From an uncultured Clostridia bacterium (GTDB lineage: Bacteria > Bacillota > Clostridia > Christensenellales > Aristaeellaceae): DNA of 64,000 nt. Shown in pieces: positions 40,390 to 64,000 of the stretch. Where the stretch lies: NCBI GenBank assembly GCA_947167215.1, contig CAMVHE010000005.1, positions 1,905-65,904 on the forward strand, in the 5' to 3' direction. Below the pieces are notes generated by a model, which had not been told where the DNA came from, searched no databases, and saw only the letters and a program-made list of their open reading frames with translations. Position numbers and translations under genes: made by a program. Each line of letters opens with the position of its first letter. Within the stretch, counting starts at the first letter, position 1.

Positions 40390-40418
40390 AGTCGTCCTCC
40401 ATTTTCATTCTCATGACG

Positions 40419-42154: not shown

Positions 42155-42184
42155 GCGCCGGACCCACCAAGGCGAATCCGGCGC
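42155..42184 (-). other. intercistronic stem-loop after the binding-protein gene
   Basis: GCGCCGGA…TCCGGCGC, an 8-bp stem with a 14-nt loop and no U-tract. Confidence 0.35.
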
Positions 42185-42230
42185 TTCAAAATAATTACTT
42201 TACAGTGTATTCCTTACTGCGGTCCGAAAA

Positions 42231-43238: not shown

Positions 43239-43286
43239 GGGGTTTCCTCCTTTGAATAATTCAATCTATCTTAAGCGTTCCAGCGC

Positions 43287-44342: not shown

Positions 44343-45278
44343 TCAGATTGCCGTGAAACCATCTCTGGCGTAGCAGGCTGCACCATAAAGGACATTCTGG
44401 TCCATCAGCTGGCATTGCTGTATCTCATAATGCCCTCTGGCTGAATCAAATACATAGGCCTCGGTATAACGGCGGATTGGTGCAAGCAGCACCTCTCCCA
44501 GATTCGCCACTCCGCCCCCGATGGCAATCCTCTGCGGTGCCAGCAGCGTAATCAGATTGGCCAGCGCCAGGCCGTACACTCTGGCATCTTCCTCGAGGAA
44601 ACGGAGAGCAAAAGTATCTTCCTTTTCGGCCGCCTCCCGGAGATGGTAGGTACTCAGCGTTTCCCGGCGTCCGTCGCAGAGTTTCATCAGGAGAGAATGG
44701 TCCGGCGTCTCCGCCCGCAGTCTTTTCGTCATGGCTACCCCGCTGCAGAATTTTTCGAGCCGGATAACATTTCCCGTTACCGGGTCCTGGACCACGGTAT
44801 TTCCAAAATATGAGGCGCCATACCCTACGCCGTCATACACCTTGCCTCCGATGAACATGGCCCCGCCAATTCCTGTGCCGATATTGGTATAAAAGAAACT
44901 GCGGATATCCTTTCCGCTTCCCATCATCAGTTCCGCATAGCCGCCGCATACCGTATCATTGACAATCACTGCCGGAACATGGAAATGGTCTTCCATCCAC
45001 CCCTTGAGGTTCATATCATTCCACCCGGGAACCTGAACGGAAAAAAGCACCTTTCCAGTCCTGCTGTCCACAATGCCGCCAAATCCGACACCGATCGCCT
45101 CAACCGGATATTCCGCCAGCAATTCCGGCAGTTGCAAAGCAATCCACGAAAGCACGGTCTGCGCACCGTCCACCAGAGGAAATTTCCCGGTCTTCTGCTT
45201 CAGAATCCGTCCATCTTCTTCGTGAATGGCGATCTGCTGTTTGGTACCCCCGATTTCTATGGAAGCATATCTCTTCAT
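44343..45278 (-). CDS. ROK-family protein lacking the canonical zinc motif (sugar kinase-like)
   Basis: From the ATG at 45278: MKRYASIEIGGTKQQIAI…, VGFGGIVD, NDTVCGGYAE, TNIGTGIGGA. There is no CxCGxxGCxE block. The ORF-track start at 45620 overlaps lplA and is rejected. Confidence 0.65.
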   Translation of the reverse strand: MKRYASIEIGGTKQQIAIHEEDGRILKQKTGKFPLVDGAQTVLSWIALQLPELLAEYPVEAIGVGFGGIVDSRTGKVLFSVQVPGWNDMNLKGWMEDHFHVPAVIVNDTVCGGYAELMMGSGKDIRSFFYTNIGTGIGGAMFIGGKVYDGVGYGASYFGNTVVQDPVTGNVIRLEKFCSGVAMTKRLRAETPDHSLLMKLCDGRRETLSTYHLREAAEKEDTFALRFLEEDARVYGLALANLITLLAPQRIAIGGGVANLGEVLLAPIRRYTEAYVFDSARGHYEIQQCQLMDQNVLYGAACYARDGFTAI

Positions 45279-45462
45279 TTTCCTTTTCCTCATGGCTTTT
45301 TCATCAAGAAGCCTGGTCTCTGAATGAAATATGGTTGTTTCCCGCCGTTTCGGCTGAGAATTTTCCGGTTTTCCTGCAATGCTTCCTTTCCGGGCATGCC
45401 GTGCCCGGAACAGAAAATACATGAATGCACGGCCTTCTCCGGAGCGTTGCAGACTGCCTCCC

Positions 45463-46449
45463 TCAGCTTTCGCCGTTTCCGTTTTTCTGAAAGAGGGACA
45501 GCAGATCCCGCTGGATGGCAGCATCACACGGAAGCGTGCGGATGATCTGTGGCAGTTCTTCAAACGATCTTCCGGTAAAGTTCTTATCAAGGGTTGCAAA
45601 AAGTTCTGCATCCATGGCATCGGTCACCGCCTGGAAAGCCTGAATTCTTCCTGATTCCCGGATAAAACGCACCGTGATGTTCCCCCAGGAGAAGCTTCCC
45701 CGAAGAATTTCGGCATCCGGAATTGTCCGGTCCATGATAAAGCTCTCCGCTGAAAAACACGACGTGTAATATCGGATTTTCTGTTCCTCCTGTGTCGTAA
45801 ACTGCTTTCCGCGGCAGGAGGATCCGAATGCCTCTTCAAAGGAAGCACGGACCGCAGAAGCTGTCATCGGTACCGTCAGATCGCTTCGGTAGAAAGTCAG
45901 GTTTTCCGTCCGGCTCTCCACGCTGTGAACCGCATGTCTGGCGAGCTTGCTTCTGTCTGCCGTCAGCCATTTCTGCATTTCTCCGCGGTTGCTTTTTACC
46001 AGAATGGTCCCGTGATGGAAAGCTTTTCCGTCATGACAGTAAAACGCACTTCCGGAAAATTTCTTTCCTTCCACCGTCAGGTCATTGCGCCCATCCACCC
46101 GGGCGGGAATCCCAAGGCTCTGTACCGCTCTGGCGATAATCTGCATCTGTTTCGGAATGTCAAAGGCGGATTCGGGCAGAATCATCGTAAAATTCAGGTT
46201 CCCCAGATCATGGTAGACTGCGCCTCCTCCGCTCATTCTTCTGGCAATTTTCCCTCCGTCCTTCCGAAATTCAGATGCCCTGCATTCCATCAGCACATCC
46301 TGGTTTCGTCCAACAACAATGGTATGGGCATTCTGCCAAAGATACAAAATGGCGGTCTGCCCTTGAAGCGTCCGGGTCAGAACCCATTCTGTCGCCAGGT
46401 TCCGGTATGGATCTGTCCCGTTTCCCTTCAGGATCAGCAGCTCATCCAT
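45463..46449 (-). CDS. lplA: lipoate-protein ligase A
   Basis: From the ATG at 46449: MDELLILKGNGTDPYRNLATEWVL…VGRNQ…RRMSGGGAVYHDLGNLNF. Confidence 0.85.
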   Translation of the reverse strand: MDELLILKGNGTDPYRNLATEWVLTRTLQGQTAILYLWQNAHTIVVGRNQDVLMECRASEFRKDGGKIARRMSGGGAVYHDLGNLNFTMILPESAFDIPKQMQIIARAVQSLGIPARVDGRNDLTVEGKKFSGSAFYCHDGKAFHHGTILVKSNRGEMQKWLTADRSKLARHAVHSVESRTENLTFYRSDLTVPMTASAVRASFEEAFGSSCRGKQFTTQEEQKIRYYTSCFSAESFIMDRTIPDAEILRGSFSWGNITVRFIRESGRIQAFQAVTDAMDAELFATLDKNFTGRSFEELPQIIRTLPCDAAIQRDLLSLFQKNGNGES

Positions 46450-46503
46450 CTTTTTTCCTTTCGCCGAGGCATCCGCTGGCATTTTTTTCTTTTTCCGTAC
46501 AAA

Positions 46504-46535
46504 CACAAATTGCCGGCATTGCCGGACAATCTGTG
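46504..46535 (-). terminator. possible attenuator/terminator hairpin between the ROK kinase gene and lplA
   Basis: Minus strand reads CACAGATTG(T)CCGGC-AAT-GCCGGCAATTTGTG followed by TTTGTACGG, a short U-tract. Confidence 0.35.
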
Positions 46536-46557
46536 CTTGTTATTTATTGGAGAACAG

Positions 46558-47487
46558 TCAGGAACGGGAACAGTCCGTTCCGATAAAGGCCGCTCCGATC
46601 ATCGGAGCATCGCTGCCCAGGACAGCTTTCAGCACCTGAAGACGGTTAAGATGTGTCCAGGCATAATAGCCCCTGGCCGGAATCCTCTTTCTCAGGAACT
46701 CAATGACCATATCATGCTCACTCAGTCCGCCGGAAATAATGACAGCTTCCACGCTGAGCAGATTCACCGCACCTGCGATTCCTGCTGCAAGATCCTCCAG
46801 ACACTCTTCAATCACTTTCTGCATGACGGTATCCCCTGAGGCGGCCAGGTCAAAAACACTTTCGCATTTTTTCGGCCAGTTTTCAAACCGCTCCGGGAAA
46901 GCCTGGTAAGCCCTCCGGAAAATGTTATTGCCGCTGGTATACCTTTCAAGGCAGCCAATGCTTCCGCAGGCGCATTGTTCTCCTTTTCTGTCAATGGTAA
47001 TATGTCCGAGTTCTCCTGCAGTATTCATCCCTCCGGAAAATACCCGTCCATCCAGAACAATACCGCAGCCTATTCCCGTGCCGATAGTCACGACCATCAG
47101 ATTATCAAAGGGCTTTCCCGCACCAAAGAGTTTTTCAGCCAGAGCACCATTGCGGGAATCCTGGGCAACCAGAACGGGTTTCCCCATCGCCTTTGAAAGA
47201 TATTCTCCCATCGGAACATCATACCACTGGAGATTGGGGCAATAGGAAACCATTCCTGTCCTCGTATCTGCAGTTCCGGGCACGCCCGCACCGATAAAGG
47301 TAATATCCGCCTCCGAGAATCCTGCTTCCCCTGCCATCTCCCGCTTAACCTCCGCGATGCGGACAGCAAGGGCTTCCGGATTCTCGGAGTCCAGGGTCGA
47401 TACCTTCCGTTTCAGGAGAATCTCTCCGCTGTCGGATATGAATCCCATATTGACCTTTGTTCCACCAATATCTATTCCGATCCGCAT
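46558..47487 (-). CDS. ROK-family sugar kinase (glucokinase-like)
   Basis: MRIGIDIGGTKVN…, TIGTGIGCG, and the zinc motif GHITI…CACGSIGCLE. Confidence 0.8.
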   Translation of the reverse strand: MRIGIDIGGTKVNMGFISDSGEILLKRKVSTLDSENPEALAVRIAEVKREMAGEAGFSEADITFIGAGVPGTADTRTGMVSYCPNLQWYDVPMGEYLSKAMGKPVLVAQDSRNGALAEKLFGAGKPFDNLMVVTIGTGIGCGIVLDGRVFSGGMNTAGELGHITIDRKGEQCACGSIGCLERYTSGNNIFRRAYQAFPERFENWPKKCESVFDLAASGDTVMQKVIEECLEDLAAGIAGAVNLLSVEAVIISGGLSEHDMVIEFLRKRIPARGYYAWTHLNRLQVLKAVLGSDAPMIGAAFIGTDCSRS

Positions 47488-47496
47488 CCTTAGCTC

Positions 47497-48747
47497 CTAT
47501 TCTGATCTGGGAAGGGTGGATCCGCCGTACGGCATCACCAGAACCTTCCCCTTTCCATCCGTTTTCCCGAGTGCATAGGCAGCTGCTTCCTCCAGCGTTG
47601 CGAAATGGCGCAAAAAGGTTTTTCCAACCATCTCCGTCGGCATCTCGCTGATCAGGCAGACTTCCGCCTGCTCTGCCACCAGCGCAATCGCTGCTGCCTT
47701 ATGGCCTCCCAGTTTAAAATGGGCCCTCGTTCTGGCAATCAGTTCCTGCGGTGAAGAGCCGTCCGTCATCCATTCCCCGAAAGTCTTTTCCCCCATGCCT
47801 TCCCTGCAGGAGCCCACCAGGACCACTGTCCCGCCGGGTTTTACCGCATGCTTCGCATTATCGAGGGCTTTCTGCGTCTGGTACAGATTCAGATCTTTGG
47901 GTGCCCCCCCCTGGGATACCAGGACGATGTCCGCTTTTTCGGGAATTTTTTTCATGTACAGTCTGTCAATCATCTGGCAGGCAGTCCGGTGCGCTGTGAT
48001 ATGGTCTCCCGCAAAAGCTCCGATGATCCGCTTATGTTCATCCAGTACCACATTCAGGATGAAATCGGCCGGGCACAGCTTCGCCGCTTCCTCGATGTCT
48101 TCCCGGATCGGGTTGCCTGCAAGCTGACCGGCGCAGGCACCCGCTTCCACCATGTGGCTGTGATTGCATTCAATGGCTTCCCGGGTCGAACATCCGGGCA
48201 TGATGGCCTTGTCTCCGCCGGAATAGCCTGCAAAATAATGGTATTCCACGTTTCCAAGGCAGATTCTGAAATCTGCCTCTGCCACTCTTCGGGTGATCTT
48301 TACCGGCGTCCCCCGGCTGGTAACTCCCAGGTCTATTACATCGTCCGGATCCGAATCCTCGCAGGTATAACGCCTGTATGCTTCGTCACCAACGAGGTGC
48401 TTCTTTTCTTCTTCACTCTGTTTCCGATGGGAACCGACTGCAAAGACCACGGTCACATCTTCATCCCGGACACCTGCAGCTTCCAGCGTTTCCATCAGGG
48501 CAGGCATCACCCTCGACGTCGGCATGGGACGGGTCACATCGCTGGTTACAATGACAACCTTATCTCCGGGATGGATCCGTTGTTCCAGCGGCAGGCTGTC
48601 CATGGGATTTGCAAGCGCTTCCCGGACCAGTTCGCTTTCGCTCTTCCCGCTGTGAACCACCGGGTTGGGCGTAAGAATTCCCATTACCAGCTCATCGGGG
48701 ATTTCTGCCGTCTGTGTTCCATATCCGAATCCCAATTCAATTTTCAT
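47497..48747 (-). CDS. LarA-family nickel-pincer-cofactor-dependent 2-hydroxyacid racemase/epimerase homologue
   Basis: 416 aa with the DUF2088/LarA layout. His107 (VGSHRK), His170 (EYHYFAGYSGG), Lys180 (GGDKAI) and His196 (CNHSH) sit at positions corresponding to LarA His108/His174/Lys184/His200. Alignment was by eye. Confidence 0.75.
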   Translation of the reverse strand: MKIELGFGYGTQTAEIPDELVMGILTPNPVVHSGKSESELVREALANPMDSLPLEQRIHPGDKVVIVTSDVTRPMPTSRVMPALMETLEAAGVRDEDVTVVFAVGSHRKQSEEEKKHLVGDEAYRRYTCEDSDPDDVIDLGVTSRGTPVKITRRVAEADFRICLGNVEYHYFAGYSGGDKAIMPGCSTREAIECNHSHMVEAGACAGQLAGNPIREDIEEAAKLCPADFILNVVLDEHKRIIGAFAGDHITAHRTACQMIDRLYMKKIPEKADIVLVSQGGAPKDLNLYQTQKALDNAKHAVKPGGTVVLVGSCREGMGEKTFGEWMTDGSSPQELIARTRAHFKLGGHKAAAIALVAEQAEVCLISEMPTEMVGKTFLRHFATLEEAAAYALGKTDGKGKVLVMPYGGSTLPRSE

Positions 48748-50111
48748 GGCATTCTCCTTGGCATGTTATGGCACGATTCTCCCCGGGTATCCAGGGCCGC
48801 CTCCATAATGATCTCGCTGACGGTAGGATGTGGATGAACCGTCATGCCCAGTTCTTCAATGGTTCCTTCACAGCGCATTACGGCTGCGATTTCCGCAATC
48901 ATTTCCGTTGCATTCGGCGCCATGATCTGGGCTCCCAGCAGTTCCCCGGTCCTCCGGTCGCTGACCAGAATGCAGATGCCGGTTCTTTCGTTCATTACCA
49001 TGCTGCGTCCGTTGGTTGCAACCCGGAAGCTTCCCGTTGCCGGTTCATAGCCTGCCTCTCTTGCCGCCTTTTCCGTAAGCCCGATATAGGCAATTTCCGG
49101 ATGCGTATACACACAGGCAGGCACCTGACGGTAGTTAACCGTGGCCGGGCTTCCGGCAATGGTATTCGCCACGGCATGCGCCTGGGCACCTGCCGCATGG
49201 GCAAGCTGCATTTTTCCGGTAATATCGCCGATGGCGTATACTCCGGGCACACTGGTACGCAGATAATCATCCACCACGACGAATCCCTTTTTCAGGGCAA
49301 TACCGGCTTCTTCCAGGCCGATTCCTGCGGTCATCGGGCTCCGCCCGATGCAGCAGATCACCTTTTCTGCCTCCATTTTCAGGGTCTTTTCTCCGGAAAC
49401 ATAGCTCACGCTGCCGCTTTCGATCGACTGCACCCTTGCATTGCAGCAGATATTCACCTGTTTCTTTTCGAGAACTTCCTTCAGCATTCCCGTAATGATC
49501 GGGTCCACTCCCGGAAGAATGTCCGGCATCATCTCCAGGACTGCGACACGGACTCCCAGTGCGGAGAACAGGGTGGCGAATTCAATGCCGATAACCCCTC
49601 CGCCGATCAGGATGACACTTTGCGGAAGACTCGTCCAATGGAGCACCGTGTCGCTGTTTTCTGCATTTTCAATGCCCGGAATCGGAGGTACTGCCGGTTT
49701 GGCCCCCGTGGCGAGAATCAGGTTCTTCGTTTCTATTTTTTCGTCCTTCACCTGGACCGTATGCGCATCCAGAAGCACTCCCCTGCCGCGGATCACCGTG
49801 ACTCCGTTTGCCTTTTCCAGCGCCTCCACGCCTCTGCGCAGAGTTGCCACCTGACGGTCCCGAAAAGATGCGAGCCTGGCGAAATCCATGGCAGCCCCGG
49901 TCACTGAAATGCCCAGGGTTTCTGCTTCGCGGATGCTTTCAAAAACCTCCGCACCGTGAAGAAGCGCTTTCGTCGGAATGCAGCCCCGGTTAAGACAGGT
50001 GCCTCCCACTTCCCGCTCCTCCACAAGCGCCGTCTTCAGCCCATGCTGGGCGCAGTGAATTGCCGCCTCGTAACCGCCGGGGCCTGCACCCAGAACCAGG
50101 ACATCATACAT
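48744..50111 (-). CDS. acoL: dihydrolipoyl dehydrogenase (E3)
   Basis: VLGAGPGGYEAA and the redox disulfide GGTCLNRGCIPTK. 455 aa. Confidence 0.9.
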   Translation of the reverse strand: MYDVLVLGAGPGGYEAAIHCAQHGLKTALVEEREVGGTCLNRGCIPTKALLHGAEVFESIREAETLGISVTGAAMDFARLASFRDRQVATLRRGVEALEKANGVTVIRGRGVLLDAHTVQVKDEKIETKNLILATGAKPAVPPIPGIENAENSDTVLHWTSLPQSVILIGGGVIGIEFATLFSALGVRVAVLEMMPDILPGVDPIITGMLKEVLEKKQVNICCNARVQSIESGSVSYVSGEKTLKMEAEKVICCIGRSPMTAGIGLEEAGIALKKGFVVVDDYLRTSVPGVYAIGDITGKMQLAHAAGAQAHAVANTIAGSPATVNYRQVPACVYTHPEIAYIGLTEKAAREAGYEPATGSFRVATNGRSMVMNERTGICILVSDRRTGELLGAQIMAPNATEMIAEIAAVMRCEGTIEELGMTVHPHPTVSEIIMEAALDTRGESCHNMPRRMP

Positions 50112-50129
50112 ACATGCCGCCTCCCTCTT

Positions 50130-51428
50130 TTACAGCATCAGCATCGGATTTTCCAGCAGCTGCCGGATTCTTGCAAGGAACTGCGCCGCCGGTGCGCCGT
50201 CAATGATGCAATGGTCATATGTCAGCGTCAGCCACATCATCGGCCGGATTCCCAGCGTATCATCCGGCAGGACCACCGGCTGCTTCTTCATTGCGCCAAC
50301 CGCAAGAATCGCGGATTCCGGTGCATTGATGATTGCCACAAACCGGTCTATGCCATACATTCCCAGGTTGGTCACGGTAAAGGTGCTGCCGGACAGCTCA
50401 TCCAGCTGAACGGTTCCGTCCTTCGTGCGTCCTGCCAGGTCTTTTGCCTTTTCTGCCAGCTCCGACAGGCGCATCTGATCCGCATACCGGATGACCGGGA
50501 CCATCAGGCCCCTGTCTGTGGCCACCGCCATTCCCATGTGCACATGGGGCAGCTTGAGGATCGCGTCCCCCTCCCGCCGCACGTGGATCATCGGGAACTC
50601 CGTCAGGGCCTTTGCCGCGCAGTACATGACGATGTCGTTGTAGCTGATCTTCACTCCGGAAGCTTTCATGGCTTCCCGGAGGGCAATGCAGGCAGTCATG
50701 TCCACCTGTACGCTGTGATTCGCCTGTGCCGTCGTTTCGAGACTTTCCTTCATATGTCTGGCGATGGTCCGGCGGATTCCGGTCATGGGCTCCGGTGCAA
50801 TCCGGACGGGTTCTTCTTCTTTCTGCAGCATTCCGCGGACATCTTCCGCCATGATCTTCCCCCGGACACCCGATCCGGAGATTCCTTCCAGCGGAATTCC
50901 TGCCAGCTCTGCTTCCTTTCTGGCAAGCGGGGTGGCCTTCACCGGCTCATAGGCAAGCACATCCCGTTCAATAACCATGTGATCCGGGCCGGTTGGCGGG
51001 ATTTTGGTAATATCCAGCTTCCGCTCTTCCGCCCGCATTTTTGCCCTGGGAGTGGCATAGAATTCCCCGGCCGGTGCCGCTTCTGCAGCTGCCGTCTGGC
51101 GGACTTCCCGAACGGTCTCCGGCTGCTCCTTCTCTTCCTTCTCCGCAGGAGCAGTTTCCCCGGAAGCACCCTCCTCGGGGATCTTTTCTCCCGGCTCACC
51201 TACCCAGGCAATCGTTTCGGTAATCGGAACGGTATCCCCTTCGGGATGCACGATCTTCAGCAGAGTACCGCCGGCAGAAGCGTCAATGGTGATGGTCAGC
51301 TTATCTGTCTCCATCTCAAAAAGAGGCTCACCGGCTTTGACCGTTTCTCCTTCTTTTTTCAGCCATTTTGTCAGAAATCCTTCTGTCATCTGCAGGCCCT
51401 GTTTGGGCATGATGATCCTCTCCGCCAT
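50130..51428 (-). CDS. acoC: dihydrolipoamide acyltransferase (E2) with one lipoyl domain
   Basis: From the ATG at 51428 (GGAGG upstream): [17 protein letters not shown]…[14 protein letters not shown] (lipoyl-Lys). Pro/Ala/Glu-rich linker and a catalytic domain ending …[14 protein letters not shown]. Confidence 0.85.
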
Positions 51429-51438
51429 ATTCCGCCTC

Positions 51439-55422: not shown

Positions 55423-55428
55423 CGAAAT

Positions 55429-56802: not shown

Positions 56803-56820
56803 CGTATATTTCCTCCTCTA

Positions 56821-57492
56821 TCAGGCTTTTGCTGCCTTTTCCCCTTCGCAAATGACCGGCGTTGATCCAAATCCCACGCCAAGCCTTGCAACGCCTTTAT
56901 CCACATAGAACTTGGCGGTCTCATACGTCCGGACTCCGCCGGAAGGCTTTACGCCGATGCGGCCGTCCGCTGCTTCCAGCATCGCCATGACAGCCTCCGG
57001 AGTCGAACCATGGGAAGAGAATCCGGTGGAAGTCTTTACAAGGTCCGCCCCTGCTTCCACGCAGATTTCCGTTGCCTTCTTTATTTCCGGAATGGTAAGT
57101 TCACTGGTTTCAAAAATGACCTTTACCAGTACACCAGCCGGATGGGCCTTTCCCACCACCCTGGAAACCTCATCCTTCACCTTGTCCCAGCAGCCGGACC
57201 TGGCCAGACCGTAATTCATGACCATATCGATTTCGCGCACGCCTTTGGCCACATACAGCTCTGCCAGCATTTCCTTGGCCTCTGCAGGAGCCTGTCCATG
57301 GGGAAAGTCCAGTACCGTGATCACCATGGTATCCGTTCCCTTCGTCATCTCCTGTGCCATCTCAATATCGCAGGGACGTACGCACACACTGCGGCAGTTA
57401 TAATCAATACCCACCTGAATCTGTTTGCGCGCTTCCTCCTGCGTCATCTCCGGCTTCAGCACTGCATGATCCAGGTATCTGCAGATATCCAT
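56821..57492 (-). CDS. deoC: deoxyribose-phosphate aldolase
   Basis: 223 aa. LDHAVLKP, VCVRP, and the Schiff-base Lys in LVKTSTGF. Confidence 0.85.
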   Translation of the reverse strand: MDICRYLDHAVLKPEMTQEEARKQIQVGIDYNCRSVCVRPCDIEMAQEMTKGTDTMVITVLDFPHGQAPAEAKEMLAELYVAKGVREIDMVMNYGLARSGCWDKVKDEVSRVVGKAHPAGVLVKVIFETSELTIPEIKKATEICVEAGADLVKTSTGFSSHGSTPEAVMAMLEAADGRIGVKPSGGVRTYETAKFYVDKGVARLGVGFGSTPVICEGEKAAKA

Positions 57493-57504
57493 TTTATTTC
57501 CTCC

Positions 57505-57954
57505 TTATTTTCCCATCCGCTTCTGTGCATATTCCGGATCCAGGGTTCCGTCCGCGGTTCCCCAGGCATCCTTGCGCACAAAATATACTTCATTCTGTTC
57601 CTGATGGGGCCAGAATGTGTAGATCACAAAAGGCTCATCGCTCTTTGTATTATCAATCCAGTGGAAAGTATGGGGTGGGATCACAATGAAATCTCCCGCT
57701 TTTGTCGGAATGGCATCCTCATCCAGCCAGACCCAGCTCATGCCTTCCTTGCACGAAACGATATAGTATATTTCCGTATCCTCGTGCGCCGCGCCGCCGG
57801 TCCTGCCGCCGGCTTTCAGGGTCCCCTCATTGATATTGATGACCGGGATTCCATCCATGTCATCGCAGGTCAGCATTTTCGAGGTGTATACCGCATCGCA
57901 GTCATACCCGCGAATATTTTCACTGTTGACCAGCGTCCATTTAACCTTCTCCAT
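57505..57954 (-). CDS. cupin-domain protein
   Basis: From the ATG at 57954 (GAGGAG 7 nt upstream). Cupin motifs GGAAHEDTEIYYIV and AGDFIVIPPHTFHWIDN. Confidence 0.65.
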   Translation of the reverse strand: MEKVKWTLVNSENIRGYDCDAVYTSKMLTCDDMDGIPVININEGTLKAGGRTGGAAHEDTEIYYIVSCKEGMSWVWLDEDAIPTKAGDFIVIPPHTFHWIDNTKSDEPFVIYTFWPHQEQNEVYFVRKDAWGTADGTLDPEYAQKRMGK

Positions 57955-57967
57955 GCCTCTGCTCCTC

Positions 57968-58477
57968 TCAGGGATAAATCTTGATTTCATTCATTTCTGT
58001 CCATGGAATTTCCGGTGTGTCATGATTCTCCAGCATGTCAAAGCGGATGTATTTGGCATTCACCGGCGTCTCCAGCACCACATCCTGCCATCCTTCCTCT
58101 TTTCCGATATTCACATGGGTCAGGAATTTCCATGGCACCGATTCAATGCTGTCTTCTTTCTTGCGCAGTTTTCTCGGCTCATCCGTATCGGATACATAGA
58201 TATCCACTGCCTTGCAGAGCTCTCCAAGCACGGAGATATCAATGCCTACGTTCCGGAAAAATCTTATCTTTCCAATGCTCTGCTCTTCACCGAAGAAAGA
58301 CAGAATCAGATGTGCCGGTCCCAGCGTATTGGCTCCCCATGTACCGCCGTTGCGGGTCACATCATCGTCAATGATGTTAAGCACCCAGAGGAGCGGATCG
58401 CTCTCGGTATGGGAGCACCATTCAATGCGCGTATAATAACTGCCGTCCCGACGGACACCCAAAGGATAACTTTCCAT
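57968..58477 (-). CDS. cytoplasmic F5/8-type-C (discoidin, galactose-binding-like) single-domain protein
   Basis: 169 aa with no signal peptide. …GGTWGANTLGPAHLILSF…IGKIRFF…DIYVSDTDE…AKYIRFDML…WTEMNEIKIYP follows the discoidin-domain pattern (by eye). Confidence 0.5.
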   Translation of the reverse strand: MESYPLGVRRDGSYYTRIEWCSHTESDPLLWVLNIIDDDVTRNGGTWGANTLGPAHLILSFFGEEQSIGKIRFFRNVGIDISVLGELCKAVDIYVSDTDEPRKLRKKEDSIESVPWKFLTHVNIGKEEGWQDVVLETPVNAKYIRFDMLENHDTPEIPWTEMNEIKIYP

Positions 58478-58489
58478 TTTTCAGCCTCC

Positions 58490-59419
58490 TCACTTTGTTC
58501 CATAGGTTGCAGCATACAACCGATCAATTTCTTCCCTGGTCGGCATTGCCGGAGCCGTTCCGTAGCGGGTCACAGAAAGTGCTCCTGTGACGTTGCCGTA
58601 CCGCAATGCAGTAAACAGATCCATTCCCGCATCCAGCGCCATGGCAAAGCCTCCATTGAATGCGTCTCCCGCGCCAGTTGTATCCACGGCTTCTACCGGA
58701 ATCCTTGGCAGCAGTTCCTCCCGCACCCCGTCAAAGGCGTAGGCACCCATGGCTCCCAGGGTAATCACCACCTGGCGCACCCCTTTCTTCAGGAAGCATT
58801 CCGCTGCCCTGCGGGCATCCGCTGCATTTGCCACGTGAATGCCAGTCAGCACTTCCGCTTCCGTTTCGTTGGGGGTCACAATATCTATCTTCGCCATTAT
58901 CTCGTCCGGGATCGGTGCCGCCGGAGCCGGATTCAGCACAATCCGGACGCCTGCCCGGTGCGCAATGTCAATTACCCGGTACTGGGCATCCATATTGATC
59001 TCATGCTGAAGCAGGAGAATATTCGCAGACTCCACCAGCTTTCTGCATTTTTCCACGTCCTGTTCCGAAATCTTCCCGCAGGCATCAATAATCACGATGA
59101 TGGCATTCTGGGCGCTTTCCTCATCCACCATAATCTGTGCCACGCTGGTGGAAAGTCCTTCCTCCTCCAGAATGTAGTCCGTATTCATTCCTTCCTTGCG
59201 ATAGAAATCCAGGGCAATCTGTCCAAAGGCATCCTTTCCGAGTTTGGTAACAAAGGTTACATCCGCGCCGGCCCGGTGCGCCGCTACCGCCTGGTTGCTG
59301 CCTTTTCCGCCGGGTCCGTACCGGAAGCTGTTGCCCAGAATCGTCTGGCCTGGCACCGGGAATCCTTTGGACCTGCTGGTAAGATCCACGACAAAACTGC
59401 CGAAGTCCACAATGCTCAT
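58490..59419 (-). CDS. ribokinase-family (PfkB) sugar kinase
   Basis: From the ATG at 59419: …GPGGKGSNQAVAAHRAG… and DTTGAGDAFNGGFA. The ATG overlaps the upstream stop (ATGA). Ribose versus deoxyribose specificity is not deducible. Confidence 0.8.
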   Translation of the reverse strand: MSIVDFGSFVVDLTSRSKGFPVPGQTILGNSFRYGPGGKGSNQAVAAHRAGADVTFVTKLGKDAFGQIALDFYRKEGMNTDYILEEEGLSTSVAQIMVDEESAQNAIIVIIDACGKISEQDVEKCRKLVESANILLLQHEINMDAQYRVIDIAHRAGVRIVLNPAPAAPIPDEIMAKIDIVTPNETEAEVLTGIHVANAADARRAAECFLKKGVRQVVITLGAMGAYAFDGVREELLPRIPVEAVDTTGAGDAFNGGFAMALDAGMDLFTALRYGNVTGALSVTRYGTAPAMPTREEIDRLYAATYGTK

Positions 59420-60501
59420 CTTTGCTTTTCCTCCAATTCTCTGCACTTTGTCTCCATGTACTGCAGCTCGTCTGCACCATGAAGCATGCGGATTTCAAAA
59501 TGAACAGCATATTGTTCGCCGGGCTCCAGTACCTGCAGACATCCCTTTTCGCGCAGCGCCGCTCTTCCCTGCGGATAACAGTTTCCGGGTTCAAAAGCAA
59601 GCACATATTCGCCTTCGCGGCAAACCTTCCATTCCGAGAAGCAGGGAAGCTGACTCGGGAAAAAGCCCAGGGCTACTCCTATTTCTTCCTGCGGATTGAC
59701 CAGTGCCACCTCGGTATACCCTTTCGCATCACAGTTCAGGGTATGATAATACTGCCGTTCCAGATAGTCCTTTTCCGGGGGCTCAAACGAGTCATAGGAG
59801 GACAGATATTTTTCTGCCTCTTCCGAAGCGGGAACCACTTTTCTGGTAGGAATCAGAAGCCTGGCCTCTTCCGATAAGAGCGGGTATCCCAGATTGATAT
59901 GATAGAAGAATGTCAAAGGAGTAGCGACGGTTCCCTCATTGGAAAACAGATCATCCACCATGATGGTACGTTTTCCGAGGTACGTGGTTATTGTCCTTCT
60001 CAGCTGAAGGTGCTCTCCGTGGAGCCTTCCTTCCTGCATCCGCCCGGACAGCCGGATCCGATACTGACCGTCCACCCACTCCGTTTCACTGCAGATGTTG
60101 TCCGCTCCCGTGTTGGAAATGTCTCCATGCAGGCCGAAAGGCGTAACACCGACGATGGGCAGCTCTTCTTCACAGGGCGGTCCGGCATTCTGCAATCCGC
60201 AGGTAGTCAGAAGACCGCCGAAGAAGCTCTGCAGCCATTGCATGTTCCTCCGGTCATGATAGCCCGGGTGGCTGATCTCTGCCTTGGTACGGTAGGCAAT
60301 GGGGATTCCCCGGAAAGATGCTTCCGCAATATCCATCCCCCTTCCTGGCAATACCAGGAACTGCATATCCCCGCAGGTCACCGCCATCATTTCCATACCG
60401 GCAGCTCTGCCTTCCAGCATCATGGCGCGGCGCACGCAGGCCACCTGTTCCATGTTGCCCAGGCGCCTGCGGCACTCTTCCCGTGTCACTGGGATCGGCA
60501 T
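59416..60501 (-). CDS. aldose-1-epimerase-fold protein (DUF4432 type)
   Basis: From the ATG at 60501: …LVLPGRGMDIAEASFRGIPIAYR…TPFGLHGDISN…FYHINLGYPLL…. Confidence 0.6.
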   Translation of the reverse strand: MPIPVTREECRRRLGNMEQVACVRRAMMLEGRAAGMEMMAVTCGDMQFLVLPGRGMDIAEASFRGIPIAYRTKAEISHPGYHDRRNMQWLQSFFGGLLTTCGLQNAGPPCEEELPIVGVTPFGLHGDISNTGADNICSETEWVDGQYRIRLSGRMQEGRLHGEHLQLRRTITTYLGKRTIMVDDLFSNEGTVATPLTFFYHINLGYPLLSEEARLLIPTRKVVPASEEAEKYLSSYDSFEPPEKDYLERQYYHTLNCDAKGYTEVALVNPQEEIGVALGFFPSQLPCFSEWKVCREGEYVLAFEPGNCYPQGRAALREKGCLQVLEPGEQYAVHFEIRMLHGADELQYMETKCRELEEKQR

Positions 60502-60505
60502 AGAA

Positions 60506-61567
60506 TCAATCCCCTTCCACCATATCAATCATCACCTTGATACGGGTTGCCTTCCGTTCATCCGAAGCAGCAAAAGCTTCAACAATCTGATCGAAAGGAA
60601 AATGGTCCGTTATCATCGGTAAAAGACTCATATGTCCATAAGCCAGAAGGTCCAGCAGTTTCCGTCCCAGATTGGGCGTTCCTGCCGCGCCTACCAGGGT
60701 AATATTGCGGGCAATGATATTGTCCAGTTCTACATTATCCAGCACCTGCTCATAGAACCCCGGAATTACCAGGTGGCCGCTTCCGCGGGTGCAGCGGATG
60801 GCGGTATTCAGCAAAGAAGGATTTCCGGTGGTGTCAAGCACAATGTCCGCACCTTTTCCCTTGGTCTCCCGCATCACCACATCCAGCAGGTCTTCCTTTT
60901 CTGTATTGACGAGAACATCTGCTCCCATCTGTTTTCCGATTTTGAGCTTTGCATCTTTTCTTCCCGCCAGGAGCGTTTTTCCGACTCCCACTGCTTTTGC
61001 ACATGCCATACCGCCGAGACCGATCGCACCGGTACCCAGTACCAGCAGCGTCTTATTCGGGCCGATCGGCGTGCGGCTCAGGCCGTAATAGCCGATGGAC
61101 GCCGGCTCCACCAGGGCTGCCTCCGTCAGGCTCACATTATCCGGCACTTCATACAGAAGCCGTTCAGGCATCAGCATATAGTCTGCAAAGGCGCCGGGCC
61201 AGCAGTTGCCGGTAGTTCCTATCGCTCTTCCTTTTTCGCAGTTCTGGTAATTTCCTTCCAGGCAGGCTTCACATTCACCGCAGGACCAGCCGGTATCGCT
61301 GATTACCCGGGTTCCCGGCTTTATCCGCCACGTTTCACTTCCTGTTTCTTCGACTACTCCCGACCATTCATGACCGGGGCGCACCGGGAATTTTGCCCGC
61401 ATGGAGGGCCCTTCTCCAAGCACCAGGGTTCCATGCAGAATAGACATATCCGTTCCGCAGATACCGCAATGATGTACTTTCATCAGACATTCCTTGGGAC
61501 CGGGGACCGGTTTTTCCATCTCGACTACTTCAAGCTTACCTGGCCTTTGAATGACGAGTACTTTCAT
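60506..61567 (-). CDS. zinc-dependent medium-chain dehydrogenase (sorbitol/threonine/2,3-butanediol dehydrogenase family)
   Basis: From the ATG at 61567 (AAAGGAG upstream): HHCGICGTDMSILHG, GHEWSGVV, structural-Zn CGECEACLEGNYQNC, and GTGAIGLG. Confidence 0.8.
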   Translation of the reverse strand: MKVLVIQRPGKLEVVEMEKPVPGPKECLMKVHHCGICGTDMSILHGTLVLGEGPSMRAKFPVRPGHEWSGVVEETGSETWRIKPGTRVISDTGWSCGECEACLEGNYQNCEKGRAIGTTGNCWPGAFADYMLMPERLLYEVPDNVSLTEAALVEPASIGYYGLSRTPIGPNKTLLVLGTGAIGLGGMACAKAVGVGKTLLAGRKDAKLKIGKQMGADVLVNTEKEDLLDVVMRETKGKGADIVLDTTGNPSLLNTAIRCTRGSGHLVIPGFYEQVLDNVELDNIIARNITLVGAAGTPNLGRKLLDLLAYGHMSLLPMITDHFPFDQIVEAFAASDERKATRIKVMIDMVEGD

Positions 61568-61605
61568 CTCCGTACACTCCTTTCTGAGGCTTAAAACCCG
61601 ATGCG

Positions 61606-62393
61606 TTAAAAGTCGCGGGTATATCCGCAGGTCCATCCTCCGTCAATGGTTACCACGGACCCGGTCATATAGGCAGAATCGTCGCTTGCAAGGAAGCAAG
61701 CCATGCTGGCAATATCCGCCGGGTCTCCCGGCCGATGCAGCGGAATATGGGACATCATTGCCTCTGCTTTCACCGGGTCTGCATAGAACAGTGCGCGGGT
61801 TCCTTCAAACATGATGGATCCCGGACAGATGCAGTTCACACGGATGGAAAGCGGTGCAACTTCCAGTGCCATTGCTTTGGTAAGGTTGATTACGCCGGCC
61901 TTGGCCGCTGTAAAACCACACTGCAGCCTCAGCGGTGTAAGTCCTGCTATGGAGGCAATGTTAATGATGGTTCCGCCCTTTCCCTGAATCTCCATCTGCT
62001 GAATTGCCGGCTTGGAGCAGTAATACACTCCATTCAGGTCTACATTGATAATGCGTTCCCAGAGGTCATCATTATACTGATGGATCGGCTGGCGATACTC
62101 CGGTCCGCCGTTGATTCCCGCATTATTCACCAGGCAGTCTACTTTACCGTAGATTTCCACGGTTCTGCTGATCATATGCGCTGCACTTTCGCGGCTGCCA
62201 ACATCCACCTGGATTCCTACCGCTTCCCCGCCTGCTTCCCGGATCACATCCACACGGTGATTCATGGTCTCTTCGTTATAATCTGCCACAACCACCTTGG
62301 CGCCATTTCTTGCAAACTCTTCTGCCATTGCACCGCCTATGGCGCCGCCTGCTCCGGTGATAATCACAACCCTGCCGTCCAAATTCACTTTCA
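61606..62393 (-). CDS. short-chain dehydrogenase/reductase (SDR) family protein with Phe at the catalytic Tyr position
   Basis: From the ATG at 62393: VVIITGAGGAIGGA (TGxxxGxG), NNAG, and NIASIAG…GFTAAKAG, i.e. FxxxK instead of YxxxK, 13 residues after the Ser. Confidence 0.75.
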
Positions 62394-62410
62394 TAGTTCT
62401 TCCTCTTTTC

Positions 62411-63400
62411 TTATGCAGGTACTTTTCTGCTTTGCTTGTACACGTCAAACAGCACAGCAGCTGCCATAAGCAATCCCTGGATTGCCACACGCATGGTGGT
62501 CGGCAATCCGATAAAGATAATGGCATTTTCAGCAACGAATACCAGTGTAACGCCAATCAGAATGCCAAGAGGCGAGCATTTTCCGCCGCTCAGCGACACA
62601 CCGCCAACAACACATCCGGCAATTGCCCGGAATTCCCATCCGTCACCGGTTTCCGGCAGTCCAAGCCCGATATCCAGAGTCAGCAGAATGCCTGCAATAC
62701 CGGAAAGCAGGGAGGAAATGACATAAGCTTCCATTCTCATCTTCGTTACATTGATTCCGCAGAGCTTCGCCACTTCCCGATTATCTCCTACAGCCAGCAT
62801 GTATCTGCCCCATACCGTATATTTGATGACCACGAAACCGATGGCAAACAGAAGCAGCATGATCCAGAAATATAACGGCATTTTAAAATAGCGCTGATCA
62901 AAAACCTTGACGAGCGGGAAATTCTCGAGGGTATTGAGACTGAGCTGATACCCATGGATGAAGAGATAGCGGGCACCGCCCACCATATACAGGGTTCCCA
63001 TGGTTGCCACAAAATCCGGAACTTTGAAATGCACTACCAGAAGTCCATTGAAAAGCCCGATAAGCAGGCAGCACGTCATTGCAAAGATAATCGCCGGACC
63101 AGCTGTCCAACCATGGTCAATTACCAGCATGGACATCAGGATTCCTGCAAATCCGGCCACACGACCGGTAGAAATATCCACCTGGCCGATCATCAGAGGA
63201 AAGCTTGCACCAAGTGCAGTGATGGCGATGAATGGAATCTGTGTGAACATCGCCTGAAAGTTACTGGGTCTGAAGAAATCCGGGCGGATGATGGTAGTCA
63301 CCAGGCAAATGAGTGCCAGCGGTATAAATGCACTGAATTCATCCGTGCGCGTCAGACGTTTCAGTAACGTATGATCCTTTTGGACCGTCTTTTTCTCCAT
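62411..63400 (-). CDS. ribose/xylose-type (CUT2) ABC sugar permease
   Basis: 329 aa, about 10 TM segments, …GQVDISTGRVAGFAG…, RbsC-like. Confidence 0.8.
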   Translation of the reverse strand: MEKKTVQKDHTLLKRLTRTDEFSAFIPLALICLVTTIIRPDFFRPSNFQAMFTQIPFIAITALGASFPLMIGQVDISTGRVAGFAGILMSMLVIDHGWTAGPAIIFAMTCCLLIGLFNGLLVVHFKVPDFVATMGTLYMVGGARYLFIHGYQLSLNTLENFPLVKVFDQRYFKMPLYFWIMLLLFAIGFVVIKYTVWGRYMLAVGDNREVAKLCGINVTKMRMEAYVISSLLSGIAGILLTLDIGLGLPETGDGWEFRAIAGCVVGGVSLSGGKCSPLGILIGVTLVFVAENAIIFIGLPTTMRVAIQGLLMAAAVLFDVYKQSRKVPA

Positions 63401-63412
63401 GATGTCACCCCC

Positions 63413-64000
63413 TCACATTCTCGTCAGTTCACGCTTCTCGAGTTTTTTGCGCTGCAGATCCATCAATACTGCCAGTACAAGGATAGCGCCAATCAGTACC
63501 AGCTGAAGGTTTGTATCCACGTTAAGAAGCCGCAGGCAATCCCACAGTGTATGGAACAGCAGTACGCCCAGCGCCACTCCGAACATGGAGCCCGCGCCTC
63601 CCGTCATGCTGATGCCGCCTACTGCGCAGCAGATAATCGCTCTGAATTCTCTTCCACCGCCAAAGTTCGAGTTGGCAGTTGCGTTTTTAAGCACGTCAAA
63701 CATGCCGCCCGTAGCTGCCAGAATACCTGCCAGAATGAAAACCATCATTTTTATCTTGCGTACATCAATTCCTGCCATTTCAGCAGAATCCTTGTTTCCG
63801 CCTACTGCACGCAGCTGATATCCAAACTTTGTCCTGCGGATCACAAAGTCCAGTATTAGGATCAATGCGATAAATATGAAGAACAGCCAGGAGAGTCTCA
63901 ATGGTTTCGCTCTTGTAAAAGCGGAGGTCCCCAGTGCTTTGATGGACAGCGGAACGCCCTGGCAGATGGTTACGGCAAGGCCCTGGCACAGATACTGTGT
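63413..64000 (-). CDS. second CUT2 ABC sugar permease, C-terminal part only (reading frame open to window end)
   Basis: The frame continues upstream of the TTG chosen by the ORF track: …TQYLCQGLAVTICQGVPLSIKALGTSAFTRAKPLRLSWLFFIF…GGNKDSAEMAGIDVRKIKM… No stop occurs up to 64000. Confidence 0.75.
   Translation of the reverse strand, partial: TQYLCQGLAVTICQGVPLSIKALGTSAFTRAKPLRLSWLFFIFIALILILDFVIRRTKFGYQLRAVGGNKDSAEMAGIDVRKIKMMVFILAGILAATGGMFDVLKNATANSNFGGGREFRAIICCAVGGISMTGGAGSMFGVALGVLLFHTLWDCLRLLNVDTNLQLVLIGAILVLAVLMDLQRKKLEKRELTRM

Follow-up and report, generated by a model that had tools for sequence, protein, structure and literature searches.

A ribose-type sugar module joined to an aldehyde dehydrogenase, SucCD-type ligase and lipoyl complex module in an operon of an uncultured Clostridia bacterium

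Genes and organisation of the operon

We analysed a stretch of 64,000 nucleotides, hereafter called the window, from an uncultured, gut-type Clostridia bacterium of the family Aristaeellaceae (GenBank assembly GCA_947167215.1, contig CAMVHE010000005.1, positions 1,905 to 65,904 of the forward strand). In this window, 20 consecutive genes, taken from the list of open reading frames (ORFs) and their translations, are located on the minus strand between positions 64000 and 44343. An earlier interpretation made from the letters and ORFs alone (the sequence-only reading) had seen in these genes one tightly packed operon for an undescribed catabolic pathway, and all of its family assignments were upheld by Pfam and NCBIfam profile searches. 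Unless stated otherwise, coordinates refer to the window and genes to its minus strand.

In the direction of transcription, the gene run starts with two permeases of a CUT2 ABC transporter (63413-64000, cut by the window edge, and 62411-63400). Both match PF02653; the top NCBIfam match of the first permease is of the AraH/MglC type and lies below the cut-off, and the second is AraH-like with 182 bits. They are followed by a short-chain dehydrogenase/reductase (SDR; 61606-62394, adh_short_C2), which passes the model of the glucose-1-dehydrogenase subfamily PRK07231 (231.8 > 215), and by a Zn-dependent medium-chain dehydrogenase (MDR; 60506-61567, ADH_N and ADH_zinc_N), for which the top NCBIfam match, the scyllo-inosose 3-dehydrogenase IolM, reaches 210 bits and thus stays below the cut-off of 450. 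The next gene codes for a DUF4432 protein with an aldose-1-epimerase-like fold (59416-60501; PF14486, 307 bits), whose sole solved relative, 3ty1, is named a 'hypothetical aldose 1-epimerase'. A ribokinase-family (PfkB) sugar kinase (58490-59419) exceeds the cut-off of the ribokinase model TIGR02152 (327.7 > 299.65), and it is followed by a discoidin/CBM32-like protein of 169 amino acids (57968-58477), a small cupin (57505-57954; Cupin_2), which is a possible sugar isomerase and has weak solved relatives only, and DeoC, a deoxyribose-phosphate aldolase (DERA; 56821-57492; TIGR00126, 193.6 > 117.3). The 169-residue protein has no Pfam match of its own and belongs to a tight family with 223 close small homologues, some of which give faint matches to the discoidin domain PF00754. 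For the cupin and the DUF4432 protein, searches of solved structures yielded no functional lead.

The second half of the run begins with a SucD-type CoA-acylating aldehyde dehydrogenase (ALDH; 55429-56802), followed by the two subunits of an ADP-forming acyl-CoA ligase, a beta subunit of a SucC-like subfamily (54262-55422) and a SucD-like alpha subunit (53381-54265). The genes for a lipoyl complex come next: the alpha subunit of a thiamine pyrophosphate (TPP)-dependent E1 of the Aco/PDH type (52416-53384; E1_dh, 259 bits), the E1 beta subunit (51439-52419; Transket_pyr and Transketolase_C), an E2 dihydrolipoyl acyltransferase (50130-51428), which contains lipoyl, E3-binding and catalytic domains and has the lipoyl-lysine motif ETDK in its translation, and an E3 dihydrolipoyl dehydrogenase (48744-50111; TIGR01350, 510 > 408.8). 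These are followed by a nickel-pincer 2-hydroxyacid racemase of the LarA family (47497-48747) and a ROK-family sugar kinase without a DNA-binding domain (46558-47487; PF00480, 216 bits), for which all NCBIfam kinase models remain below their cut-offs. The genes larB, larC and larE are not among the operon genes. The last two genes encode a lipoate-protein ligase, LplA (45463-46449; LplA-B_cat, 175 bits; TIGR00545, 261.7, just below the cut-off of 280), and a second, more divergent ROK-family protein (44343-45278; PF00480, 145 bits), of which a 48%-identical orthologue is found beside the corresponding cluster in two related loci (L016 and L122).

Start codons were set by the ribosome-binding site, and a GGAGG-like ribosome-binding site precedes each operon gene. 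As described before, neighbouring genes lie 4-38 nt apart or share 4 nt, with the same five overlaps (59416-19, 54262-65, 53381-84, 52416-19 and 48744-47), and the only two larger gaps are 46450-46557 (108 nt) and 45279-45462 (184 nt). The first of these gaps, between the ROK gene and lplA, indeed contains a hairpin of 19 bp on the minus strand (approximately 46499-46540; -34 kcal/mol, z = -4.7 versus shuffled sequences), which has no U-tract and might act in RNA processing, in stability or as a weak terminator; the second carries a weaker hairpin (z = -2.2). Within the operon region, neither promoter-like motifs (15 versus 13.6 in shuffled sequence) nor terminator-like motifs (24 versus 18.8) are found in excess. 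The ATPase, the binding protein and the regulator, which had been expected beyond the window edge, were seen on the metagenome contig L001. This contig bears permease genes that are 100% identical to those of the window, preceded by genes for a permease, an ATPase and a binding protein (1219-2235 of L001) and, before these, by a 690-nt gap and a co-directional gene for a LacI-type regulator. An Rfam search of the L001 leader region and of window positions 36000-64000 returned no RNA element. Due to the tight spacing, the ribosome-binding site at each gene, the lack of a motif excess and the upstream genes on L001, we conclude that the genes form one operon, which is real and comprises approximately 24 genes when the upstream part is counted. 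It is probably a single catabolic operon under LacI control. Co-directional minus-strand genes, a class II aldolase gene and others, continue below 44343, down to 36487 or beyond; however, the operon is separated from the class II ketose-bisphosphate aldolase gene that follows by 231 nt containing a promoter-like site (TTGACA-17-TAAGAT, 44173-44145), and this gap and this site make 44343 a reasonable lower border, as had been proposed.

Two modules recur in Clostridia and Spirochaetes

To place the operon in context, one genome per species (GTDB) was scanned with the SucC-like protein and the window proteins were mapped on the loci, designated by L numbers, using tblastn. The scan identified 47 species representatives with a SucC that is 42-70% identical to the window protein. 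They belong to the Clostridia, including Oscillospiraceae, Christensenellaceae and Lachnospiraceae, and to the Spirochaetes (termite-gut Treponema, Marispirochaeta and Sphaerochaetaceae). The ALDH gene is located directly upstream of the SucC gene in 45 of the 47 loci, and a SucD gene downstream of it, again in 45 of 47. The two exceptions with regard to the ALDH are L014, where the contig starts inside SucC, and L009, where a transaldolase-family gene is found instead; in the SucC subfamily as a whole (42-75% identity), an ALDH gene lies upstream wherever the contig reaches, except in L009. The remaining 33 scan loci code for canonical SucC proteins (34-40% identity), and an ALDH gene is present in none of them (0/33). 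Genes for E1, E2 or E3 are found within 10 kb of the ALDH-SucC-SucD triad in 33/47 loci, and in Treponema, the unit consists of ALDH-SucC-SucD-E3, with E3 directly after SucD. We refer to the CoA-acylating ALDH, SucC and SucD, usually accompanied by the E1αβ/E2/E3 lipoyl complex, as module T. The adjacency is therefore not unique to the genome analysed here, an outcome that would have refuted the sequence-only reading, and was found in dozens of others.

The partners of module T differ between loci. A GntR/FCD regulator is encoded beside the triad in 18 loci and an MBL-fold hydrolase in eight. Transaldolase-family genes adjoin it in L084 and L009, a TRAP transporter, a DHDPS-type aldolase and two transaldolases in L046-L049, and a GFO/IDH/MocA oxidoreductase, a xylose-isomerase-like TIM barrel protein and an M24 hydrolase in L036, L044 and L045. 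The transaldolase/FSA-family protein that replaces the ALDH upstream of SucC in L009 (8555-9925) is unusually long with approximately 457 amino acids, and a protein of the same kind precedes LarA-ALDH-SucCD in L084 (5946-7322; Candidatus Merdisoma). A compact spirochaete locus, L043 (823-13241), contains genes for a KduI/IolB-family isomerase, an SDR, the TRAP transporter DctPQM, ALDH, SucC, SucD and a LarA homologue, with a malic enzyme near, and links module T to uronate or deoxy-keto-sugar-acid catabolism. In L083 (216-5110, on a 2.4-Mb contig), the triad lacks a lipoyl complex and adjoins the genes for a four-subunit 2-oxoacid:ferredoxin oxidoreductase and a malic enzyme, and a LarA homologue and a HAD hydrolase are encoded divergently from the triad; this suggests that the 2-oxoacid-oxidising step can come from either enzyme type.

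The genes upstream of the ALDH gene form a second recurring unit, module S, which consists of the CUT2 ABC transporter, SDR, Zn-MDR, DUF4432 protein, ribokinase-like kinase, discoidin-like protein, cupin and DeoC. The order SDR, MDR, (DUF4432), ribokinase-like kinase, discoidin-like protein, cupin, (second ribokinase paralogue), DeoC was seen in L011-L013, L016, L086, L088/L089, L091, L093/L094, L105, L110, L114, L122 and L127. The cupin gene is kept beside the kinase and DeoC genes in relatives, and the second ribokinase paralogue is present in L086 and L091. SDR orthologues that are 59-75% identical adjoin ABC transporter genes in L003, L004, L011, L012, L093, L094, L105, L110, L114 and L127. 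As in the window, modules S and T are fused in L006, L011, L013, L016, L086, L088 and L122, and the ALDH gene directly follows deoC in the window, L006, L011, L013, L016, L086, L088/L089 and L122. The two modules are convergent in L114, and L091 contains module S without module T. A reduced arrangement is found in L003, L004, L007 and L085, where the transporter genes and an orthologous SDR gene are oriented divergently from module T and from a GntR and an MBL-fold gene. As module S is present alone in L091 and module T in a variety of other settings, the cluster is best seen as a fusion of two recurring modules that can be separated, and not as a unique juxtaposition or as a pathway that cannot be divided.

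A number of loci carry additional genes next to parts of module S. In L090, a member of the 169-residue discoidin-like family is encoded alone (10001-10510), directly after a GH36 alpha-galactosidase, and in L088 (1-1775; 10001-10513), the whole window-type cluster is preceded by genes for a GH36 protein and a ROK kinase. These GH36 neighbours are hints of a galactoside- or arabinopyranoside-related substrate. A sequence search of solved structures for the ligand of the binding protein gave only distant ribose-binding proteins (E ~1e-9), and no specific support was found for the suggestion that the SDR and MDR act here as members of the two butanediol-dehydrogenase families. Mini-clusters in which the rest of module T is absent were found in L098 (3847-6345; ribokinase (RbsK)-DeoC-E3) and L117 (4398-7652; DeoC-E3-malic enzyme). 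Downstream of DeoC or E3, L011, L012, L105 and L110 encode a conserved protein of 313 amino acids without a Pfam or NCBIfam match (F23). The same four loci also contain genes for a 220-amino-acid protein of no assigned family, another SDR and an additional, divergent pair of E1 alpha and beta subunits (48% and 60% identity), and a split transketolase follows in L105 and L110. The extra E1 pair and the transketolase are further TPP-dependent, C-C cleaving enzymes tied to module S. Using tblastn, neither the MBL-fold hydrolase nor F23 was found in the window.

Substrate class of the conserved enzymes

The top solved relative of the ALDH is the acylating succinate-semialdehyde dehydrogenase SucD from Clostridium kluyveri (8CEI; 522 bits, 54% identity), compared to 366 bits for AdhE. 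In the C. kluyveri enzyme, Lys70 and Ser243 hold the distal carboxylate of the acyl group, and Thr395 takes the place of a hydrophobic residue of PduP (PMC10249356). The window ALDH retains all three residues, and among the triad-linked ALDHs, Lys70 is conserved in 48/48, Ser243 in 47/48 and Thr or Ser at position 395 in 48/48 sequences; the corresponding residues of AdhE are Ala, Ala and Gln. The catalytic residues Cys242 and His364 are kept in 48/48. Judged by these residues, the ALDH is of the SucD type and not of the acetaldehyde type, and it is probably made for a carboxylated aldehyde.

Both ligase subunits are above the NCBIfam cut-offs for succinate-CoA ligase (SucC, PRK00696, 385.7 > 370; SucD, TIGR01019, 394.8 > 353), and the phosphohistidine motif SMGHAGAIV is present in the SucD translation. 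The alpha subunit also keeps the Tyr residue that contacts the distal carboxylate of succinate; the equivalent position is a His in the 3-sulfopropionate enzyme HpfZ (PMC11489063). The neighbouring loop reads SRSATN[CAG]YE in each of the 45 triad loci for which SucD could be aligned, as opposed to xRSGTLTYE in all 27 canonical sequences aligned. Together with the conserved Tyr, this variant loop suggests that the ligase substrate may be succinate-like, yet not identical to succinate. GIT versus GIV in SucC, which has been proposed as a specificity marker (PMC11489063), was discarded, as most of the canonical SucC proteins sampled also have GIT. An acylating ALDH (PF00171) next to a two-subunit ligase (PF08442/PF02629) would convert an aldehyde via the acyl-CoA to the acid with formation of ATP, as the sequence-only reading had assumed, and by analogy with the proven pairs SqwD/SqwKL, SauS/SauCD and HpfX/HpfYZ this is the best reading (PMC11489063, PMC10413351).

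Enzymes for malate or tartrate are recurrent partners of the triad. The LarA homologue has Mar2 (6d6z, 385 bits) as its best solved relative, with approximately 195 bits for the lactate racemase LarA, and it passes the model NF052593, 'nickel-dependent malate racemase, LarAH6 family' (548 > 500). Its previous assignment as a LarA-type isomerase is thus correct with regard to the family and can be narrowed to the malate racemases of the LarAH6 family. The catalytic His residues, the Q-K (Gln-Lys) motif and the GHK motif are retained. LarAH6-family racemases are encoded in the window, in 8/47 of the GTDB loci and in L083, L084, L087, L110 and L114. A malic enzyme is found beside the triad in L023, L025, L036, L043 and L083, and also in L117, and an Ldh/Mdh-family gene in L114. 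L045 encodes two copies of a tartrate/D-malate dehydrogenase (441.4 and 483.6 versus the TIGR02089 cut-off of 470.4), and in L088, which has the window-type architecture, such a dehydrogenase replaces the racemase (504.6 > 470.4). As a D-hydroxy-dicarboxylate needs either a racemase together with an L-malic enzyme or a D-specific decarboxylating dehydrogenase, the occurrence of one or the other is what would be expected from a D-malate intermediate. The pocket of the ALDH, the Tyr residue and loop of the ligase and the malate and tartrate enzymes beside the triad therefore point to a carboxylated C4 compound as the substrate of module T.

The lipoyl complex is complete within the operon, with E1 alpha and beta, a lipoyl E2 and E3, as in AcoABCL. 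The description of the E1 as Aco-like holds by score only, the best match of the alpha subunit, PDH_E1_alph_y, reaching 338.7 and lying below the cut-off of 393.85. A PDH_E1_alph_y match below the cut-off is typical of AcoA-like proteins in Firmicutes. The models for E1o, the 2-oxoglutarate type, score just 27-28 bits.

The solved DERAs are the top structural-database matches of DeoC, and the Schiff-base Lys and the catalytic Lys/Asp/Lys residues are kept. The protein belongs to a subtype with the motifs DFPHG (for GFPLG) and RLGVGF (for the phosphate-binding RIGASS), which we had considered as a sign of a carboxylated, non-phosphorylated substrate. This idea was dropped. In a metagenome scan, the same variant was found in stand-alone deoC genes beside ligA/sbcCD/addAB or tgt, and it is therefore taken to be the ordinary DERA of the lineage.

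Proposed pathway and alternative explanations

We tentatively propose, on the basis of the residues and gene neighbourhoods described above, that the operon joins a sugar module to a module that converts a carboxylated C4 aldehyde to the acid with a gain of ATP, and then to pyruvate and acetyl-CoA. In module S, the CUT2 ABC transporter would import a neutral, ribose-like monosaccharide, which would be remodelled by oxidoreduction and isomerisation (SDR, Zn-MDR, the epimerase-like DUF4432 protein and the cupin). The ribokinase-type kinase would then phosphorylate the sugar, and the DERA-type aldolase would cleave it. If module S feeds module T and the flux runs in the oxidative direction, the SucD-type ALDH would next oxidise an aldehyde with a distal carboxylate to an acyl-CoA. 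This aldehyde would be a C4 compound of the size of succinate semialdehyde, most likely malate or tartrate semialdehyde. The ADP-forming SucCD-type ligase would turn the thioester into the free C4 (hydroxy)dicarboxylate and ATP, and the LarAH6 nickel-pincer racemase would convert the D form into the L form, from which a malic enzyme, presumably encoded elsewhere in the genome and not in the window, would produce pyruvate. In other genomes, a tartrate/D-malate dehydrogenase would act at this point instead. In the last step, the lipoyl complex, lipoylated by the co-encoded LplA through lipoate salvage onto E2, would oxidise pyruvate to acetyl-CoA. Alternatively, the complex might perform a ketol cleavage of a keto-sugar acid into an aldehyde and an acyl-CoA, and this role would explain the tight linkage between the complex and the ALDH, since the cleavage would release such an aldehyde. 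The hydroxy acid may be malate, tartrate or a relative.

One might speculate further, although we regard this wider claim as doubtful, that gut and termite-gut anaerobes among the Clostridia and Spirochaetes ferment carbohydrate-derived carboxylated aldehydes of the malate or tartrate semialdehyde type via a CoA thioester, forming D-malate or tartrate and gaining ATP by substrate-level phosphorylation. A nickel-pincer racemase or a D-malate/tartrate dehydrogenase would then lead to pyruvate, and the Aco-type complex would either make the aldehyde, through oxidative ketol cleavage of a keto-sugar acid, or finish the route to acetyl-CoA.

Several observations weigh against the proposed pathway. 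DERA enzymes release glyceraldehyde-3-phosphate and acetaldehyde. As these are the products to be expected from DeoC, and as the window encodes no enzyme with an established production of a carboxylated C4 aldehyde, the step that links module S to module T is missing. Three kinases, one PfkB and two ROK proteins, find no explanation if the pathway runs through a carboxylate as its key intermediate, and a tblastn search of the window for a malic enzyme and a tartrate dehydrogenase found none. E1 beta exceeds the cut-off of a subfamily model for pyruvate dehydrogenase (PRK09212, 386.7 > 321), which fits pyruvate as a substrate without proving it. With module S occurring without module T in L091, and in view of the diverse partners of module T, the aldehyde may vary by locus. 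In addition, the HYK loop of Mar2 reads HYF in the window racemase and in 7/8 of the triad-linked homologues aligned (Lys173 to Phe). Lys173 of this loop was proposed to help bind malate in Mar2 (PMC7583248), and hence the substrate of the racemase may not be malate.

The position of the ALDH gene right behind deoC in at least eight loci could also be explained by a different pathway, in which phosphorylation of deoxyribose or a similar deoxy sugar is followed by cleavage through DeoC, the ALDH converts acetaldehyde to acetyl-CoA, the PDH/Aco-type complex likewise forms acetyl-CoA, and the SucCD-like ligase is an ADP-forming acetate-CoA ligase that yields ATP. This would be in line with a kinase that passes the ribokinase model, a binding protein distantly similar to ribose-binding proteins, a DeoC that is a bona fide DERA family member and an E1 beta that passes the PDH subfamily model, and one database source labels a homologue of the ligase 'acetate--CoA ligase family protein'. 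However, the ALDH groups with succinate-semialdehyde dehydrogenase and not with AdhE/EutE, its carboxylate residues are kept across 48 relatives, and for C. kluyveri SucD, relative catalytic efficiencies of <2% are reported for the majority of the other CoA esters assayed (PMC10249356). Moreover, the ligase retains the dicarboxylate-contacting Tyr, and the malate racemase, malic enzyme and tartrate dehydrogenase would be left without a role. We therefore consider this explanation unlikely. The sequence-only reading had put it forward, together with a link to butanediol. Its operon, its sequence of aldehyde, acyl-CoA and ATP and its Aco-like E1 have held up, whereas the burning of acetaldehyde or acetyl units and the butanediol link have not.

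It is quite unlikely that the triad serves as a plain succinyl-CoA node, with the complex oxidising 2-oxoglutarate, the ALDH oxidising succinate semialdehyde or reducing succinyl-CoA as a redox valve, the SucCD proteins forming succinate and ATP, and the malate enzymes being a side branch. The gene arrangement resembles sucABCD of E. coli, both ligase subunits score above the equivalog cut-offs and the nearest solved relative of the ALDH is a succinate-semialdehyde dehydrogenase. However, the E1 is heterodimeric and of the Aco/PDH type, not E1o, the clade-specific SucD loop beside the substrate Tyr is fixed as ATN[CAG]Y and not GTLTY, and no 4-hydroxybutyrate or 4-aminobutyrate (GABA) genes were found among the loci examined. 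Such a node would also leave the recurring malate and tartrate enzymes unexplained, and no sugar route to succinate semialdehyde is encoded.

All characterised catabolic pairs of an ALDH and a SucCD-like ligase use sulfonates, and a SqwD/SqwKL variant has been reported in Firmicutes and Spirochaetes (PMC12890257). The triad could hence be orthologous to sulfonate modules, with the ALDH acting on sulfoacetaldehyde or sulfolactaldehyde like SqwD, the ligase forming sulfoacetate or sulfolactate and ATP like SqwKL, and the LarA homologue serving as a sulfolactate racemase in a variant sulfosugar pathway. Sulfolactate is an isostere of malate, members of the transaldolase family are encoded beside the triad in L084, L009 and L046-L049, and in L015 the triad lies beside an RpiB-like isomerase and a split transketolase, as in the sulfo-transketolase (sulfo-TK) pathway. 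This possibility appears very unlikely for the window, as no sulfonate exporter, sulfoquinovosidase or sulfoquinovose isomerase is found in the window or in the sampled neighbours. A Pfam search with ten neighbouring ORFs from six triad loci gave no sulfonate exporter; one of the ORFs is the KduI/IolB-family gene of L043. In addition, the ALDH reaches a score of 410 against a cut-off of 600 for the SauS model, the ligase lacks the His160/Asn312 signature of HpfYZ and carries Tyr and GIT in place of His and GIN, the malic enzyme and tartrate/D-malate dehydrogenase partners make sense for carboxylates only, and no known sulfoglycolytic pathway would have a use for the lipoyl complex. L015 (Spirochaetia bacterium MS502-30, 1700-11200) contains ALDH-SucC-SucD-E3 flanked by an RpiB/LacAB-family isomerase, two ChrA-like half-transporters and the split transketolase, which is the gene set expected for a sulfoacetate-making sulfo-transketolase variant, and the clade may thus include sulfonate-specific members.

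Finally, the view that ordinary rbs/deo, suc, aco/pdh and lar genes lie side by side by chance, or are linked only physically, without a common pathway, to which the separate occurrence of module S (L091) and module T (many loci) and the stand-alone DERA subtype might point, is hardly credible, because 4-nt stop/start overlaps and gaps of 6-18 nt span the module junctions, the fusion of S and T is repeated in several species whose SucC proteins are just 53-66% identical, and the ALDH-SucCD linkage is seen in 45/47 loci, with one of the two exceptions being a contig that starts inside SucC.

Relation to known systems

The closest characterised analogues of module T are SqwD/SqwKL, SauS/SauCD from Bilophila and HpfX/HpfYZ from Enterococcus gilvus, proven pairs of an ALDH and a SucCD-like ligase that interconvert anionic aldehydes and the respective acids via the CoA thioester and form ATP when they run oxidatively (PMC11489063, PMC10413351). 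As in these systems, a SucD/AdhE-N-family acylating ALDH is encoded next to an ADP-forming SucCD-type ligase, within sugar-catabolic clusters of anaerobic Firmicutes and Spirochaetes (PMC11489063, PMC10413351, PMC12890257). In the sulfonate modules, the substrates are sulfonates and the product is excreted, whereas the HpfYZ signature and sulfonate-specific genes are absent here and a lipoyl complex, a malate-family racemase and a malic enzyme or tartrate dehydrogenase are attached. The ties of the lipoyl complex and the malate and tartrate enzymes to the module point to a carboxylate that is metabolised further.

The ALDH also resembles the SucD enzymes of C. kluyveri and C. difficile, with 54% identity and the same Cys/His and Lys70/Ser243/Thr395 residues. 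In C. kluyveri, sucD is grouped with cat1, 4hbD and abfD for the reduction of succinate to butyrate. By contrast, none of these three genes is present in the window or in the approximately 60 triad-containing loci examined, and the partner of the ALDH is always a SucCD-type ligase. For comparison, the two characterised SucDs are 58% identical to each other (PMC10249356). The racemase shares with Mar2 from Thermoanaerobacterium thermosaccharolyticum the match to the LarAH6 model and the catalytic His, Q-K and GHK residues (PMC7583248), but differs by the exchange of Lys173 to Phe, and Mar2 itself is without an established pathway context. Malate racemases are the largest group of the LarA superfamily, and the papers characterising them leave their in vivo role open.

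As in AcoABCL and the pyruvate dehydrogenase complex, the heterodimeric E1, the lipoyl E2, the E3 and a lipoate-handling gene are co-operonic, and an ALDH downstream of a cleavage step follows the logic of anaerobic acetoin catabolism. Unlike in AcoABCL, evidence specific for acetoin or butanediol was not found, the ALDH appears to be made for an aldehyde with a carboxylate group, and the genes of the complex are joined to those of the SucCD type. Module S, on the other hand, recalls the rbs operon, deoK-deoC and deoQKPX from Salmonella, with which it has in common a CUT2 ribose-type transporter, a ribokinase-family kinase, a mutarotase-like protein and a DERA, but it contains an additional SDR, Zn-MDR, cupin and discoidin-like protein and is fused to module T. 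No description of the ALDH-SucCD-lipoyl unit with malate or tartrate enzymes, or of its ribose-type fusion, was found in the literature, of which our coverage was incomplete and yielded only papers on the sulfonate systems and on the LarA superfamily. All parts thus belong to known families, and it is the combination that is undescribed in the literature found.

If the proposed pathway is correct, it would add an ATP-yielding step to the sugar fermentation of abundant uncultured gut Clostridia (Oscillospiraceae, Christensenellales and Lachnospiraceae) and of termite-gut Treponema, and would extend the principle of an acylating ALDH coupled to a SucCD-type ligase, so far seen with sulfonates only, to carboxylated aldehydes. 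It would also provide a pathway context for the malate racemases. The wider fermentation route considered above, if it exists, would give this large branch of the LarA superfamily a first physiological role and explain the presence of lipoyl complexes and lipoate salvage in strict anaerobes. The automatic names 'succinate--CoA ligase', 'aldehyde dehydrogenase' and 'pyruvate dehydrogenase' would in this case mask a distinct catabolic unit. With a defined set of proteins and candidate substrates, the proposal is directly testable.

Adjacent regions of the window

A second co-directional cluster on the minus strand (36487-44111) lies directly downstream of the operon and has its own promoter-like site, described above. 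It encodes the class II ketose-bisphosphate aldolase (43287-44111), a PhnS2/PhnU2/PhnT2-like ABC transporter (39316-43238), two SIS/GmhA-like isomerase-domain proteins (38713-39300 and 37337-38011), an AAA/zeta-toxin-like kinase (38112-38756) and an Asp/Glu-racemase-family protein (36487-37143). In the Marispirochaeta loci L046 and L048, genes for a PfkB kinase and a class II aldolase come after the ALDH-SucCD triad, and the aldolase at 43287-44111 may therefore be functionally tied to the operon.

Further along, the GC content falls to 0.44-0.46 between 30000 and 36000, compared to 0.50-0.61 elsewhere in the window, and the GC skew is reversed. This stretch contains an IS66-family transposase gene (30989-32959) and a Ser/Thr protein kinase-like gene (34025-35422) with a weak match to a methylation-associated defence kinase model, and is probably an inserted mobile element. 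At 12002-16336 on the minus strand, the window encodes a housekeeping protein, the large subunit of glutamate synthase, with 1444 amino acids and GATase_2, Glu_syn_central, Glu_synthase and GXGXG domains.

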